Shown here in pieces: positions 5,884 through 10,392 of a stretch of DNA of 17,462 nucleotides (its first letter is position 1; each line of letters opens with the position of its first letter). Under the pieces are notes generated by a model. It saw nothing but the letters and a program-made list of their open reading frames with translations, was not told where the DNA came from and searched no databases. Made by a program: the position numbers and the translations under genes. Source of the stretch: a virus (taxonomy: Duplodnaviria; Heunggongvirae; Uroviricota; Caudoviricetes); the IMG/VR virus record IMGVR_UViG_2711768066_000009, positions 1 through 17,462 of that record; one strand, given 5' to 3'.

Positions 5884-6558
5884 TTAGGCCTTTATTTTGT
5901 ATCTTCTTGGTTTTCCTGAGAAAATTACTGTACCAATTATAGAGCAATTACCGTTAATCTTAATGTAAGGCTCAGGCCAGTTTGGGTTTAATGCTTTGAG
6001 ATAACGCTGTGTTCCATCTTCTATCAATCGCTTGAAGGTGGTTTCGCCTGTATCGTGCATCAATGCAATAACGTCGTCACCGTGGCAGGCAGGGACTTCG
6101 GGATCAACAAAAATCATGTCTCCCGGGCGATACTCATCAATCATTGAATCACCAATCACCCGCAAGATATAAGTCATTTCGCCACAGGGTACAGGGCAGG
6201 GATAAGTTTCTGCTGTGCTCAAATCAACCTCAGAATAGCCAACTTCTTTCCATGCTCCGGCCTGTACCCATGATATGACAGGGACTAACGTTATTTGTTT
6301 GTTAGTGATTGAAACATCAGGTTTTTTTGTGATGTTCGTGGTCTGGTGTTCTTGATCAAGCCATCCGACAGGCAGGTCGAAACATTTTTCGATGTGCCGT
6401 GCCATGCTGTCACCGATATTTTTAGTAGCACCATCTCCCATAAACCTGCTGGTCTGGGTTGGCTCGCGATCAATCATGGTGGCAAAGGAAGAATTCCCGC
6501 CAACACCATCTCTCAGTTTTCTGGCGTTAGACCGCCGGATGTCATGGACTGTTTTCAT
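5884..6558 (-). CDS. cI: CI-like prophage repressor (N-terminal HTH, C-terminal S24 LexA-like peptidase domain)
   Basis: 224-aa ORF; C-terminal region (VIGDSMIDEYRPGDMIFVD...) matches the S24 autocleavage domain pattern (Ser in GDSM). Position divergent from cro; weak or absent SD, consistent with a leaderless transcript. Confidence 0.85.
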   Translation of the reverse strand: MKTVHDIRRSNARKLRDGVGGNSSFATMIDREPTQTSRFMGDGATKNIGDSMARHIEKCFDLPVGWLDQEHQTTNITKKPDVSITNKQITLVPVISWVQAGAWKEVGYSEVDLSTAETYPCPVPCGEMTYILRVIGDSMIDEYRPGDMIFVDPEVPACHGDDVIALMHDTGETTFKRLIEDGTQRYLKALNPNWPEPYIKINGNCSIIGTVIFSGKPRRYKIKA

Positions 6559-6880: not shown

Positions 6881-7444
6881 ATGAGGCGAACCGTGGGTAA
6901 GCATCACTGGAAAGTAGAAAAACAGCCTGAGTGGTACGTGAAAGCTGTCAGAAAAACTATCGCGGCGTTGCCGGGGGGTTACGCTGAAGCTGCTGAGTGG
7001 CTGGATGTAACAGAGAACGCTTTATTCAACCGCCTTCGTGCAGATGGCGATCAGATTTTCCCGCTGGGATGGGCAATGATTTTACAGCGCGCGGCTGGCA
7101 CTCACTACATTGCGGATGCTGTCGCACAGTCTGCTGGTGGGGTGTTTGTATCGCTTCCTGAAATTGAGGAAGTAGAGAACGCCGATATAAACCAGCGCCT
7201 GCTGGAAGTCATCGAACAGATCGGGAGTTACTCAAAGCAGATTCGTTCGGCAATCGAAGATGGGGTAGTGGAGCCACACGAGCAGACAGCAATTAATGAT
7301 GAGTTGTATCTGTCAATTTCGAAGCTCCAGGAGCATGCAGCACTGGTCTACAAAATCTTTTGCGCTCCAGAAAAGAGTGACGCCCGCGAGTGTGCAGCTC
7401 CGGGCGTCGTGGCGTTTTGTGTCTGTGGAGAAACTAACGCATGA
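6881..7444 (+). CDS. CII-like/YdaT-family regulatory protein
   Basis: 187-aa ORF immediately after cro in the rightward operon; start may instead be the in-frame GTG at 6893 (GAGG upstream). Family call is from position and general resemblance only. Confidence 0.5.
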   Translation: MRRTVGKHHWKVEKQPEWYVKAVRKTIAALPGGYAEAAEWLDVTENALFNRLRADGDQIFPLGWAMILQRAAGTHYIADAVAQSAGGVFVSLPEIEEVENADINQRLLEVIEQIGSYSKQIRSAIEDGVVEPHEQTAINDELYLSISKLQEHAALVYKIFCAPEKSDARECAAPGVVAFCVCGETNA

Positions 7445-8277
7445 ACAGTTTAACGGCAAATAACCGTTTGTCGCAACAGCTGGTGGTCAGTGTCGCTGAA
7501 CACCTGTTGTTACGGCATGAATGCAGATTACCAAATCACCTGGCTGTAAGTAACCACAGAGAACTTTACCTGACTGTGGGGGGCGAGTTGTGCAGGAACT
7601 TAACCGCTGGTTTCGTGACGGAAGAGGACTTTATGTTCATGTTATTCGTTGGGAGCCAGAAACACAGCGCGTTATCTATCTTCGCAAAGACTACCCGCAT
7701 GAGTGCTTTAGTCCTTTGTGGAAATTCAGGCGTGATTTTGTTGAGTGTGAAGGACCACCAGCACATTGATTCTGCCATTCCGGGACGTTACACTGTTCAG
7801 GCACCTTATAAAGCGGGTGTCGGGATTGGCGTCCTGGAATTCAATATAGAGCATAACCGCGCTCATGCGGTTTTTTCGTATCATGAGCATTGCTACGTCC
7901 AAATTATGGTGGGGCGTGCAGGGGCATCGCAAGATGCGCCGGGTTCTATGTTGACCGGTTACGCCAACCCTGTACGTCTCACCACCTCTGTGATTGGCGT
8001 CCCATGTGGTGAGTTCTTTGAATTCAACATAGGGGCTGTCACCATGACTACTCTCCCAACCCTCGCTCGTCTGAATGATGAAGACTTACATAAACTCAGT
8101 TATGTAACAACTGCACTACGTGCTCTGCGCAAGGTAACTCTTTCGGATCCGCAGGCGCATCAGGTTCTGGTAGAAACACTTCTTAACTTGCAGGCTGAAC
8201 GTATTCGTTTGGCGGATAAGGCTAATTTTCATATTCACCGTCTCCTGAATATCAGCGGAGGGCATCGTCATGCTTAA
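7441..8277 (+). CDS. hypothetical protein (278 aa), unknown function
   Basis: Sole long ORF in this interval; ATGA overlap with the upstream gene, and its stop overlaps the ATG of the next ORF; no recognisable motifs. Confidence 0.6.
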   Translation: MNSLTANNRLSQQLVVSVAEHLLLRHECRLPNHLAVSNHRELYLTVGGELCRNLTAGFVTEEDFMFMLFVGSQKHSALSIFAKTTRMSALVLCGNSGVILLSVKDHQHIDSAIPGRYTVQAPYKAGVGIGVLEFNIEHNRAHAVFSYHEHCYVQIMVGRAGASQDAPGSMLTGYANPVRLTTSVIGVPCGEFFEFNIGAVTMTTLPTLARLNDEDLHKLSYVTTALRALRKVTLSDPQAHQVLVETLLNLQAERIRLADKANFHIHRLLNISGGHRHA

Positions 8278-8506
8278 TCCGTTGATCCTCAATATTTGCC
8301 GTTTGCTTCAGCGTAAAAAAACATCAATTCCTACAGTTGGGCAGTGGTACACCACGCCTGCAGGGCATGTTCTACGTGTTAGCCTGGTTGACCGTGAATG
8401 TCAGAAGGTGATTTGTGAACCGCTGGGCCGTAATTACCGCGTCAGTATGCCGCTTATAACCTTTCGCTCCGGAAAAAACATGAAGCATCTCGGAGGTGCA
8501 GCATGA
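8270..8506 (+). CDS. hypothetical small protein (78 aa)
   Basis: ORF overlapping both neighbours (coupled translation); no family recognised. Confidence 0.45.
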   Translation: MLNPLILNICRLLQRKKTSIPTVGQWYTTPAGHVLRVSLVDRECQKVICEPLGRNYRVSMPLITFRSGKNMKHLGGAA

Positions 8507-9321
8507 GTATGGAGCTAATGGTTAAAGCGATGAAAATTCGAGTGGGAAATCCATTGCGAAAACTGGTTCTGATTAAGCTGGCTGATAATGCCAGCGATCA
8601 GGGTGAGTGCTGGCCCAGCTACCAGCATATTGCTGACCAGTGCGAGATTAGCAAACGTTCTGTGATGAATCATATTGCGGCCCTTTGTGAGTCCGGGCTG
8701 GTAAAAAAAGTCACCCGGAAAGGTGAAAAAGGTAACTCAAGTAATATCTATCTCCTTCATCTGGATGGTGCAGGAGATTCACTAGGGGGTAGTGCAAATA
8801 ATTCACTATCTGGTGCAGCAAATTCACCAGGTAGTGCAGGAGTTGCACCAGGGGGTAGTGCAGGAGATTCACCCAGAACCAGTCACTCTTTTGAACCAGT
8901 CAAAGAACCAGTCAATGAACCAATAGCTGTTGGTGCATCTGCTGATGAGTCTGTGCGAGTTCGTTCAAACCGACCGGAATACTCTCCGGAGTTTGAGCAG
9001 GCATGGCTGGCATATCCCAAACGTGCTGGTGGCAATTCAAAATCTGCAGCCTTCAAAGCCTGGAAAGCCCGTTTGAATGAGGGGGTAAACCCCGAAACCA
9101 TGCTGGAAGGTGTGAAACGCTACGCGGGCTGGGTATCTGCGATGGGTAACAGCGGCACACAATTTGTGAAACAGGCTGTCACGTTCTTTGGTCCGGATCG
9201 TCATTTCGAAGAATCCTGGGAAGTTCCTGCGGTATCTGCAGCTAGACGTGAGGACCCGTACTTCAAAGCCAGTTACGACAACGTGGACTACAGCCAGATC
9301 CCGGCAGGATTCAGGGGGTGA
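8503..9321 (+). CDS. phage replication initiation/replisome-organiser protein (N-terminal HTH, conserved phage C-terminal domain)
   Basis: N-terminal HTH typical of phage replication proteins (LVLIKLADNASDQGECWPSYQHIADQCEISKRSVMNHIAAL). C-terminal motif EFEQAWLAYPKRAGG...KAWKA resembles the conserved phage replication C-terminal domain. Central low-complexity Gly/Ser/Ala linker coincides with DNA iterons. Confidence 0.65.
   Translation: MSMELMVKAMKIRVGNPLRKLVLIKLADNASDQGECWPSYQHIADQCEISKRSVMNHIAALCESGLVKKVTRKGEKGNSSNIYLLHLDGAGDSLGGSANNSLSGAANSPGSAGVAPGGSAGDSPRTSHSFEPVKEPVNEPIAVGASADESVRVRSNRPEYSPEFEQAWLAYPKRAGGNSKSAAFKAWKARLNEGVNPETMLEGVKRYAGWVSAMGNSGTQFVKQAVTFFGPDRHFEESWEVPAVSAARREDPYFKASYDNVDYSQIPAGFRG
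8767..8923. repeat. iteron-like direct repeats inside the replication gene (candidate origin)
   Basis: GTGCA-containing units recur at about 21-25 bp spacing (cores near 8768, 8792, 8813, 8834, 8859), including near-identical GGTAGTGCAGGAG(A)TT copies; followed by GAACCAGTCAA twice (8893-8903, 8905-8915). Confidence 0.45.
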
Positions 9322-9415
9322 TCATGAGTCTGTTAAATGACGTTCAGAAATTCATTGAAGCCCATCCGGGCTGTACTTCCGGAGACATTGCGGATGCTTT
9401 TTACGTGGGGGCTTA

Positions 9416-10069
9416 ATGAGTAATAAATATTGCCAGGCGCTGGTAGAACTGCGGAACAAACCAGCCCATGAACTGAAGGAAGTGGGCGATCAGTGGCGCA
9501 CGCCGGACAACATTTTCTGGGGAATTAACACTCTGTTTGGCCCGTTTGTTCTGGATCTGTTTACTGACGGTGATAACGCCAAATGTGCCGCGTATTACAC
9601 GGCGGAAGATAACGCGCTGGCGCATGACTGGTCAGAACGTCTTGCGGAGCTTAAAGGTGCTGCCTTTGGTAATCCCCCATACAGCCGCGCCAGTCAGCAT
9701 GAGGGGCAATACATCACCGGCATGCGTTACATCATGAAACATGCCAGTGCCATGCGTGATAAGGGCGGGCGCTATGTTTTCCTGATCAAAGCTGCCACCA
9801 GCGAAGTGTGGTGGCCGGAAGATGCGGACCATATTGCTTTTATTCGCGGGCGTATTGGTTTTGAACTGCCTGCCTGGTTTATCCCGAAGGATGAGAAGCA
9901 GGTGCCGACAGGCGCTTTCTTCGCTGGTGCTATTGCTGTTTTCGACAAGACCTGGAAGGGACCGGCAATCAGCTACATCGGGCGCGATGAACTTGAGGCA
10001 TGTGGTGAGGCCTTTCTGGCGCAGGTTCGCCAGCAGGCAGAAAAACTGGTCAGGGAGATGGCGGCATGA
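9416..10069 (+). CDS. phage Dam-like DNA N6-adenine methyltransferase
   Basis: 217-aa ORF with NPPY catalytic motif (FGNPPYSRA); size and layout typical of phage Dam-family methyltransferases; ATGA-coupled to downstream gene. Confidence 0.8.
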   Translation: MSNKYCQALVELRNKPAHELKEVGDQWRTPDNIFWGINTLFGPFVLDLFTDGDNAKCAAYYTAEDNALAHDWSERLAELKGAAFGNPPYSRASQHEGQYITGMRYIMKHASAMRDKGGRYVFLIKAATSEVWWPEDADHIAFIRGRIGFELPAWFIPKDEKQVPTGAFFAGAIAVFDKTWKGPAISYIGRDELEACGEAFLAQVRQQAEKLVREMAA

Positions 10070-10392
10070 CGACGTTAACTCAATGCCAGCAGCAGGTGCT
10101 GGATATGCTGATTTCTTACCAGAAAGAACGTGGCTTCCCGCCAACCAATCAGGAGGTGGCAACCATGCTGGGATACCGTTCGGTGAATGCAGCGGTGGAG
10201 CATCTTCGCGCACTGGAGAAAAAAGGCGTCATCACGATAAAGCGTGGCGTGGCCCGGGGGATAACGCTTCATACCGCGATGAAGGACGACGACAGCGAGG
10301 CGGTCGGGATTATCCGCTCACTGCTTGCCGGTGAGGAAAACGCCAGGCTGCGTGCAGCCCACTGGTTACATGAGAGGGGCCTGAAAGTATGA
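10066..10392 (+). CDS. LexA DNA-binding-domain-like protein lacking the S24 peptidase domain
   Basis: 108 aa; residues 1-70 align convincingly with the E. coli LexA N-terminal winged-helix domain (QQQVLDMLISYQKERGFPPTNQEVATMLGYRSVNAAVEHLRALEKKGVI vs LexA [50 protein letters not shown]); no cleavage/peptidase region. Confidence 0.75.
   Translation: MTTLTQCQQQVLDMLISYQKERGFPPTNQEVATMLGYRSVNAAVEHLRALEKKGVITIKRGVARGITLHTAMKDDDSEAVGIIRSLLAGEENARLRAAHWLHERGLKV

Follow-up and report, generated by a model that had tools for sequence, protein, structure and literature searches.

A probable antisense-RNA immunity cassette within a composite reading frame upstream of the replication gene of an SfV/e14-like prophage

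The DNA analysed here, a stretch of 17,462 nt from a tailed phage (IMG/VR record IMGVR_UViG_2711768066_000009; 'the window' in the following), is an SfV/e14-like lambdoid prophage of Escherichia coli. Between the CII-like gene ymfL and the gene for the replication initiator it contains two open reading frames (ORFs) of 278 and 78 amino acids, which an initial annotation had described as two tightly coupled proteins of unknown function. We found that the 278-aa ORF is a composite and not a single protein gene, and that its region 7766–8035 is an antisense-RNA cassette of the type known from P4 immunity, P1 immI and Gifsy-1 isrK. The interval as a whole is probably a mosaic, composed of a ymfM-like segment, an out-of-frame DUF4222 gene, the RNA immunity cassette, and two small genes, orf77 and p78, which are chained to the replication gene. 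This reading includes, with the same good confidence, the assignment of orf77 and p78 as coupled cargo and conduit of an RNA switch.

Results

The RNA cassette was detected by two Rfam families. The isrK family matches over its full length with 60.1 bits (gathering score 50, E = 6e-11), and the C4 family over model positions 1–87 of 87 with 80.1 bits (gathering score 45, E = 1e-14). The leader RNA consists of two hairpins, as folded in four alleles, and of an intrinsic terminator hairpin at 7855–7872 which is followed by TTTT (U run) and was found by a terminator scan. The minimum-free-energy fold of the C4 RNA is identical to the Rfam consensus structure, with a long closing stem around two hairpins that is supported by covariation. 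Its energy is −46 kcal/mol (z = −5.1), and none of 200 shuffled sequences folded equally well.

Both recognition elements of the C4 RNA can pair with an upstream and a downstream site of one transcript (coordinates in Table 1). Element a', the loop of hairpin 2 (CUAUGUUGA), is complementary to a1 in the leader (UCAAUAUAG) and to a2 downstream of the C4 RNA (UCAACAUAG), while the single-stranded element b' (ACGCCAA) is complementary to UUGGCGU in a leader hairpin loop (b1) and to the same sequence downstream (b2). In the window, a' pairs with a1 at 9 of 9 positions (one G–U pair) and with a2 at 9 of 9, and b' pairs with b1 and with b2 at 7 of 7 each. The a2 site overlaps the Shine-Dalgarno sequence AGGGG (8031–8035) of an in-frame ATG at 8044, which is the start codon of orf77. 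The downstream target thus lies on the ribosome binding site (RBS) of the first cistron, and this cistron is itself coupled to the next gene. The site labels a and b are our own; their order is reversed relative to the labels used for P1.

A candidate promoter overlaps the stop codon of the DUF4222 gene and is located 7 nt upstream of the isrK match. Its −10 region is invariant in the 19 alleles described below. Promoter hexamers at an equal distance upstream of isrK were found in six other loci in all, including P4, phiP27, Stx2_14040, P88 and a Yersinia phage. In P4, this position is that of the leader promoter PLE.

To collect alleles of the cassette, loci were fetched via ymfL, which yielded 25 distinct sequences of a 281-nt stretch (72–100% identical), and 19 of them were aligned. 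They fall into eight specificity classes, the independence of which is limited since the prophages are closely related. From class to class, the C4 loop changes together with its sites in the leader and near the RBS, resulting in a three-way covariation. Across the alleles, 94.7% of the a'–a2 positions and 97.1% of the a1–a' positions are paired, and in each of the two helices seven of the nine pairs have changed on both sides. Double-changed pairs were also found in b'–b2 (three) and in b1–b' (four of seven). Leader–C4 pairing taken together is 98% paired, with changes on both sides in 11 of 16 pairs. Within the C4 RNA, the closing stem is 100% paired and has four compensatory pairs, and hairpin 1 has three. 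Overall, 17 pairs show double changes, and 92% of the cells are paired versus 35–46% in slid controls. The observed covariation score was not reached by any of 500 shuffles. Cognate combinations of a' and a2 form 7–9 of 9 pairs, most non-cognate ones 2–7. The eight natural classes are a ready test set for the rules of RNA–RNA recognition.

The same region is devoid of a protein-coding signature. Between 7780 and 7995, the ratio of nonsynonymous to synonymous substitution rates (dN/dS) is 0.86 for the frame of the long ORF and 0.82 and 0.99 for the two others; pairwise differences are distributed over the three codon positions as 2736:2591:2590. For codons 50–185 of the long ORF, dN/dS ranges from 0.86 to 1.46 without codon periodicity. 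As compensatory pairing coincides with a lack of coding signal over 7780–7995, RNA pairing and not protein coding explains the conservation there.

According to the initial annotation, neither ORF has a recognisable domain. This is true for the 78-aa ORF, which has no Pfam match, and wrong for the 278-aa ORF. Residues 117–207 of the latter match Phage_ASH (PF10554; E = 1e-10, 42.4 bits, cutoff 26), and several PHROG families match as well, some of them annotated as 'transcriptional regulator'. The Phage_ASH match coincides with the isrK and C4 genes in the window, and polymorphic sites in this stretch are evenly spread over the three codon positions. An AlphaFold model (192 aa, computed with an alignment of 76 sequences) shows no secondary structure in the Ash part, with predicted local distance difference test (pLDDT) values of 40–50. 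A homologue search with the Ash ORF retrieved near-identical proteins only; diversity came from a search of 50% clusters. Seven further 'Ash' matches from tblastn were tested (phiP27, the P2-like phage P88, a Yersinia phage, Stx2_14040 and three allelic loci), and isrK and C4 lie beneath all of them. In P4, PF10554 matches the old ORF 'cI gene product AA 1-137', and the C4 match lies under that ORF in the seqA/CI RNA region. With no coding signature in the Ash stretch and two RNA genes at the same place, the 'family' would appear to be a translated RNA gene and not a protein domain. On this sequence evidence, the Pfam 'Ash' domain appears to be the conceptual translation of the IsrK and C4 RNA genes, which suggests that PF10554 should be re-examined as a translated RNA gene. 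An antirepressor function by way of homology to the epsilon protein of P4, with which one paper equates Ash, was rejected, as epsilon matches PF25738 and not PF10554, and BLASTP of epsilon against the window ORF gives E = 5.3.

The remaining parts of the 278-aa ORF are of different origin. Only its last 77 codons (202–278), here called orf77, are under purifying selection as protein. At the 5' end, a segment shares homology with YmfM-type ORFs of e14, namely with their N-terminal half. This half is under purifying selection in e14-like loci (dN/dS about 0.17–0.38; e.g. dN 0.081, dS 0.481). A comparison of the window with a Citrobacter locus (L084) gave 0.70 for 7441–7589, which indicates that the constraint is relaxed in the window lineage.

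Codons 51–110 overlap a gene in another frame that is under selection. This 59-aa ORF matches the Pfam family DUF4222 (E = 9.5e-14, 51.1 bits, cutoff 27) and phrog_1343 (E = 1e-36). In the overlap, the DUF4222 frame has a dN/dS of 0.15, as against 1.34 for the frame of the long ORF and 1.85 for the third frame; for the window versus the Citrobacter locus it is 0.19 in the DUF4222 frame versus 1.46 in the long frame. The Prokaryotic Genome Annotation Pipeline (PGAP) has annotated the identical locus of E. coli PK8241 with a 59-aa DUF4222 protein at window positions 7590–7769 and with a 192-aa 'ash family protein' starting at 7699. In 42 loci of diverse Enterobacterales, the DUF4222 gene nearly always starts with ATG behind a GGAGG-type Shine-Dalgarno sequence. 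It is located 170–200 nt after the ymfL homologue and in most cases abuts a recognisable replication gene. The homologue in e14 of K-12 lies out of frame within ymfM and has a TTG start and the Shine-Dalgarno sequence AAGGAGA. A programmed −1 frameshift from the ymfM-like segment into DUF4222 was considered and rejected: the heptamer G GGG GGC (7578–7584) is not preserved in e14, and in 42 genomes the DUF4222 gene comes with a Shine-Dalgarno sequence and start codon of its own.

The e14 locus itself merits attention in this respect. Its cell-division inhibitor gene ymfM (112 aa; L003 4823–5181, homologous to window 7441–7769) contains the DUF4222 ORF at L003 5002–5181, and purifying selection in the ymfM/DUF4222 overlap of e14-type loci is restricted to the DUF4222 frame. 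The published pBAD-ymfM clone would span the Shine-Dalgarno sequence, the start and 53 of the 59 codons of DUF4222; the parts of the publication that were searched mention no frame-specific control. The embedded gene raises the question which reading frame causes the published cell-division block and filamentation by YmfM (SfiC).

The two genes at the 3' end of the interval are genuine protein-coding genes. For codons 9–77 of orf77, dN/dS is 0.13, and the differences by codon position are 335:69:536. The last ~70 residues of the 192-aa model form a confident helical hairpin (helices 127–144 and 151–191, pLDDT >90). We found no Pfam match for orf77, and among PHROGs it matches the C-terminal parts of phrog_4908 and phrog_3960 only. 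About 20 sister loci share the RBS and the first eight codons with orf77 but continue into an ORF of 181–185 aa with a Rha domain (PF09669; PHROG 'anti-repressor'). Systems of this type have as cargo an antirepressor, as P1 ant and Gifsy-1 anrP, or replication genes, as the P4 alpha operon. With regard to cargo, the window allele (orf77 without a domain, then p78, then the replication initiator) is P4-like, and the sister alleles with Rha are P1/Gifsy-like. No similarity was found between orf77 and the Rha ORF, P1 Icd or the P4 ORF in the corresponding position, so that an origin of orf77 as an Rha remnant and homology to the two other proteins were rejected.

The dN/dS value of p78 is 0.25. 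The gene is conserved in Escherichia, Salmonella, Citrobacter and Enterobacter and follows either cargo, orf77 or Rha. Homologues with 49–55% identity are located directly before the replication gene in phiP27 and Stx2_14040, i.e. in all three phage lineages examined including the window. The structural model of p78 (pLDDT 80) retrieved only generic small barrels in fold searches. A comparison of p78 with DUF4222 gave E = 0.013 by BLASTP over 45 ungapped residues, E = 0.054 with a probability of 1% by hhalign, and reciprocal PHROG cross-hits at E = 0.012 and 0.008; Pfam DUF4222 did not match p78 at E up to 10. Because of this borderline support p78 was not accepted as a DUF4222 member, but judging from these scores the two are possibly related.

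The ORFs are linked to each other and to their neighbours by overlapping start and stop codons, as claimed in the initial annotation and as we could read from the sequence. The ymfL stop codon and ATG 7441 overlap in ATGA, the stop codon of the 278-aa ORF (8275–8277) overlaps the p78 start at 8270 in ATGCTTAA, and the p78 stop codon overlaps the start of the replication gene in ATGA at 8503. Both ORFs therefore exist as described. Their portrayal as two tightly coupled proteins of unknown function is appropriate for p78 and for the last 77 codons of the long ORF, and has to be given up for the rest of the 278-aa ORF. Their assignment as integral members of the rightward early operon agrees with this translational coupling and with the stop-free long frame.

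The 19 alleles have no stop codon in the long frame but 35 and 67 in the two others, and the length of every indel is a multiple of three. When only the variable columns were shuffled, the probability of a stop-free frame was 0.045–0.085 per allele class; all eight classes are open. Also across DUF4222, the +1 frame, i.e. the ymfM frame, is stop-free in 22 of 22 diverse Enterobacterales loci (L084–L123; window 7590–7745). Synonymous reshuffling of DUF4222 predicts about 2.2 stops in this frame, and a stop-free frame with a probability of about 0.04 per locus; the +2 frame contains 0–7 stops. The distance from the end of the ymfM frame to the ATG of the replication gene is about 10 nt in e14-type loci. 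In phiP27 and Stx2_14040, which represent independent lineages, an ORF that starts at the stop codon of the upstream gene or 3 nt after it runs across isrK and C4. In P1, stops occur in all three frames across the region.

The e14 prophage and e14-type loci do not contain the isrK/C4 cassette; for e14, neither of the two Rfam families was found. As these relatives do without it, the block is, by sequence comparison, an optional insert. The interval is 100% identical to the corresponding region of E. coli PK8241, 96% to SfV orf36–39 and 98.9% to a set of Stx2c-converting phages, and at least part of its 1066 nt is present in 1475 of 5426 complete E. coli genomes. The 278-aa ORF corresponds to orf37 of SfV, labelled 'immunity region' in GenBank; its PGAP name is 'ash family protein', and the full-length ORF is annotated in SfV and in many other records.

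Table 1. Features of the studied interval and of neighbouring genes in the window.
Feature	Position	Strand	Remarks
Composite 278-aa ORF	7441–8277	+	open from ymfL stop to p78 start
ymfM-like 5' segment	7441–7589	+	homologous to N-terminal half of e14 YmfM-type ORFs
DUF4222 gene, 59 aa	7590–7769	+	GTG start; −1 frame relative to long ORF; PF13973
Candidate promoter	7766–7794	+	−35 TTGATT 7766–7771, 17-nt spacer, −10 TACACT 7789–7794
IsrK / P4 seqA-like leader RNA	7801–7877	+	Rfam RF01394; sites b1 7826–7832, a1 7841–7849; intrinsic terminator
C4 / P4 CI-type antisense RNA	7902–7989	+	Rfam RF01695; loop a' 7946–7954, single-stranded b' 7961–7967
Downstream target sites	7994–8035	+	b2 7994–8000; a2 8024–8032 = UCAACAUAG
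orf77, 77 aa	8044–8277	+	predicted helical hairpin; first cistron, position of P1 icd and of the ORF after P4 CI RNA
p78, 78 aa	8270–8506	+	ATG start; N-terminal helix and small SH3/Tudor-like beta-barrel; coupled to orf77 (ATGCTTAA) and to replication gene (ATGA)
Replication initiator (rep272)	8503–9321	+	HTH_36/DnaD_N-like N-terminus; DnaD-like loader/primosomal-type C-terminal domain
YmfL, CII-like			upstream neighbour, stop overlaps ATG 7441; PF06892
LexA-like CI repressor, ymfK type, 224 aa	5884–6558	−	Pfam Peptidase_S24 aa 93–212
ymfT, Cro-like			neighbour of the interval
Dam methylase, LexA N-terminal-domain protein, RusA			neighbouring genes of the interval

Discussion

The immunity region of satellite phage P4, with the CI RNA, seqC, kil and the kil/eta region, provides the model for the switch that we propose. 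The mechanism is derived from this knowledge of P4, from the annotation of the P1 c4–icd–ant region, and from the account of P4 immunity in the Gifsy-1 paper (PMC4825925). By analogy, the cassette promoter would be active in the lysogen and produce the leader RNA, while read-through and processing would yield the C4 RNA. The C4 RNA would pair with b2 and a2 and thus mask the Shine-Dalgarno sequence of orf77. With orf77 untranslated the transcript would terminate, so that p78, the replication initiator and the genes beyond would stay silent. The C4 RNA could also act in trans on incoming or co-resident elements of the same specificity.

The similarity to P4 immunity extends over the whole cassette. 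In both, the isrK/seqA family of Rfam is followed by C4/CI, the spacing between promoter hexamers and leader is equal, the RBS of the first ORF (starting with MATT.../MTTL...) carries a target site, the cassette is located upstream of replication genes, and a Pfam 'Ash' ORF covers the RNA gene. In contrast to P4, the window cassette lies inside the CI/Cro-controlled rightward operon and is spanned by a long frame coupled to the upstream gene. Further, orf77 and p78 are unrelated to the P4 ORF in that position, and termination control in the window is presumed by analogy. With immI of P1 and P7 (c4, icd, ant1/ant2) the window shares a C4 RNA with two recognition elements which have targets once upstream and once downstream, the downstream ones at the RBS of a small first cistron (~75 aa) that is translationally coupled to the next gene. 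The alleles carrying Rha resemble P1 c4–icd–ant also in their antirepressor-type cargo. The window differs from P1 in its open long frame (all three frames are closed in P1), in the reversed order of the a and b sites, and in orf77, which is unlike Icd. The window allele has no antirepressor domain, and in place of ant it continues with p78 and the replication initiator.

In the Gifsy-1 isrK–orf45–anrP region (Hershko-Shalev et al., 2016, PMC4825925), the IsrK leader sRNA has a terminator with read-through, and a processed C4-like RNA, STnc1160, is located downstream. The window shares with this system the leader with its terminator, the C4-like RNA and a downstream gene which, in Gifsy-1, is expressed via translational coupling (PMC4825925). 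The first AUG of orf45 (+107) corresponds by position to an invariant AUG at 7906 in the window. The short ORF of Gifsy-1 stops before anrP, whereas in the window the same frame continues into orf77, and in sister alleles into Rha. The slot adjoins a Q-like gene in Gifsy-1 and the replication gene here. IsrK of Gifsy-1 has been described as a trans-acting activator (PMC4825925). IsrK–C4-like loci have been noted before in lambdoid Salmonella prophages by Barquist et al. (2013, PMC3632133), who suggested an anti-satellite role; this kind of system is therefore already known.

The ymfL–ymfM–oweE region of e14 in K-12 represents the arrangement without insert. Like the window, it has ymfL (88% identical), an ORF in the ymfM frame from the ymfL stop codon, an out-of-frame DUF4222 gene, and then the replication gene. 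It differs in lacking IsrK/C4, orf77 and p78, in that 10 nt separate the end of the ymfM frame from the replication gene start, and in that the N-terminal half of e14-type YmfM is under purifying selection.

Several points weigh against the proposed switch or at least complicate it. A frame that is stop-free in all alleles is not predicted by a simple P1/P4 model. The candidate promoter has 8 of 12 consensus matches, below the threshold of 9 of 12, and was not called by the promoter scan. The transcription start, the processing of the C4 RNA and the termination step are transferred by homology, and the protein encoded by orf77 resembles neither P1 Icd nor the product of the P4 ORF at that position. 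Translation has been reported for a short ORF of Gifsy-1 that begins within the C4-like region (PMC4825925). Finally, a lambdoid phage already has a CI repressor, and its need for an RNA switch is not established.

A role mainly outside the phage's own replication is a possibility that we take seriously without favouring it. The cassette could serve chiefly as a trans-acting defence or heteroimmunity system against P4-like satellites or competing phages of the same RNA specificity, the control of its own replication being secondary. The eight specificity classes on near-identical flanks look like the result of diversifying selection on specificity, P4 uses this RNA system for its immunity, and such a role is the one proposed for the lambdoid IsrK–C4-like loci (PMC3632133). 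However, the cassette is always located in cis, immediately upstream of cargo and replication genes, and this invariable placement suggests that control in cis matters. Heteroimmunity is compatible with the switch proposed above and does not exclude it.

The open long frame calls for an explanation of its own. As it is stop-free in all alleles, some transcripts probably have ribosomes moving through the RNA cassette. Selection seems to act on the openness of the frame and not on its amino acid sequence, and with residues unconstrained, ribosome transit seems to matter in itself. The ymfM frame across DUF4222, which in e14-type loci ends shortly before the replication gene, likewise gives the impression of a conduit for translation between ymfL and that gene. 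We speculate, and hold this rather doubtful, that the frame is kept open on purpose, as a device for translational bypass in cis of RNA immunity on transcripts that start at the early rightward promoter. On these, ribosomes coming from ymfL via the ATGA coupling would traverse the ymfM-like segment, DUF4222 and the entire cassette and would reach orf77 in frame. Their passage in cis would unfold the terminator and the C4 RNA and would circumvent the internal ribosome site masked by C4, which would allow lytic-mode transcripts to escape RNA immunity. Only transcripts from the cassette's own promoter or those arriving in trans would then be silenced. If this is true, the 'Ash protein family' is a by-product of a translated, sequence-unconstrained conduit over an RNA gene.

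A further possibility concerns replication itself. The initial annotation had pointed out that no P, DnaC or DnaB-like gene is seen, which holds among the eight window proteins scanned, and had considered that the two ORFs might supply a helicase loader through a novel fold, or might be an embedded accessory or defence pair. We rejected the loader, or any other novel replication protein, for the interval. Two-thirds of the 278-aa ORF are without constraint at the protein level and its Ash part is unfolded in the AlphaFold model. No loader family matches orf77 or p78 in Pfam, NCBIfam or PHROGs, and fold searches with p78 gave generic small barrels and no loader. The Ash/orf77/p78 block is absent from e14-type relatives that keep ymfL, DUF4222 and the replication gene, and the cargo is replaceable, as seen from the Rha-type ORF in place of orf77. 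The replication protein itself has PHROG matches in its C-terminal half, to families described as DnaD-like helicase loader or primosomal protein. The idea of an embedded accessory pair comes closer, as the block is an optional insert without counterpart in e14-type relatives; it is accessory in spirit, but its core is RNA and not a novel protein pair.

In a weaker form, orf77 and/or p78 would be replication accessory factors, for example an adaptor recruiting the helicase, which the RNA cassette merely regulates. The overlap of p78 with the replication gene start and its homologues directly upstream of the replication genes of phiP27 and Stx2_14040 would be in line with this, as would the DUF4222 gene, possibly related to p78, which adjoins the replication gene in most of 42 genomes. 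Small Tudor/SH3-like barrels are protein-binding modules, and the scanned proteins include no gene product like lambda P, DnaC or DnaB. We nevertheless consider such factors unlikely: e14-type relatives and a Leclercia locus (L090), the initiator of which is 56% identical to rep272, manage without orf77 and p78, about 20 loci have a Rha-type ORF instead of orf77, p78 resembles no loader in sequence or fold, and the initiator carries its own DnaD-like loader/primosomal-type C-terminal domain.

That the 278-aa ORF is a genuine single Ash-family protein, a transcriptional regulator or antirepressor translated from ATG 7441, would agree with the Phage_ASH match above cutoff (E = 1e-10), the 'transcriptional regulator' PHROGs, the annotation of the full ORF as SfV orf37 and in many records, the frame open in 19 of 19 alleles with indels in multiples of three, the ATGA coupling to ymfL and the published equation of Ash with epsilon, but is very improbable given that P4 epsilon belongs to PF25738 while PF10554 matches a P4 ORF over the CI RNA, that dN/dS is 0.86–1.46 without codon periodicity over codons 50–185, that the Ash part has no structure in AlphaFold, that an intrinsic terminator and a candidate promoter lie inside the ORF, that codons 51–110 overlap a selected gene in another frame, and that RNA pairing with compensatory changes fully accounts for the conservation.

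The stretches labelled 'ash family protein', 'transcriptional regulator' or 'antirepressor' in many records of E. coli, Shigella and Salmonella correspond, where tested, to a probable RNA immunity switch immediately ahead of the replication gene of the phage. This is also of relevance for Shiga toxin (Stx) phages. Their literature treats 'Rha/Ash' ORFs as possible replication or regulatory proteins (PMC8951638). Like the 'Rha/Ash' proteins of Stx phages Eru6, Eru7 and Eru9, the window ORF is above the PF10554 threshold and is an 'ash family protein' by PGAP. The Eru7 reference phage Stx2_14040 has the layout of the window, with DUF4222, isrK, C4, cargo, p78 and replication gene. In this Stx2a phage (L131 1327–3270) and in phiP27 (L128 1489–3292), we observed an ORF over isrK and C4, followed by a cargo ORF, a p78 homologue and the replication gene. 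According to this layout, the 'Rha/Ash' or 'regulatory protein' ORFs that define replication-region types of Stx phages include an unannotated RNA cassette. An unrecognised RNA layer over replication gene expression in these phages could bear on lysogen stability and toxin output.

Additional observations

In the P2-like phage P88 (L129 1513–3237), isrK–C4 is followed by an epsilon-like 'derepression protein' and then by the replication protein, which is a P4-like layout. A hypothetical ORF on the minus strand is annotated over the C4 RNA in the P88 record.

The CI-like repressor of the window (5884–6558) has no helix-turn-helix (HTH) match in its N-terminal 90 residues according to Pfam. It resembles the 'HTH-less' CI clade which has been described for Stx phages (PMC8951638). 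At 10066–10392, between dam and rusA in the early operon, a 108-aa protein is encoded which consists of the LexA DNA-binding domain alone (PF01726, E = 3e-19), without the S24 cleavage domain. It could be a non-cleavable LexA mimic.

The PK8241 prophage, otherwise identical, has a PerC-family gene (yfdN) between the replication gene and dam (L001 10878–11372). In the window only about 95 nt are found there (9321–9416), so that the two prophages differ downstream of the studied interval.

The gene for the replication initiator contains iteron-like direct repeats at 8768–8916. They consist of GTGCAGGAGATTCAC-type units, which are about 21–24 nt apart (8768–8872), and of three GAACCAGTCA units at 8876–8916. 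These repeats are probably the phage origin, as in lambda O.

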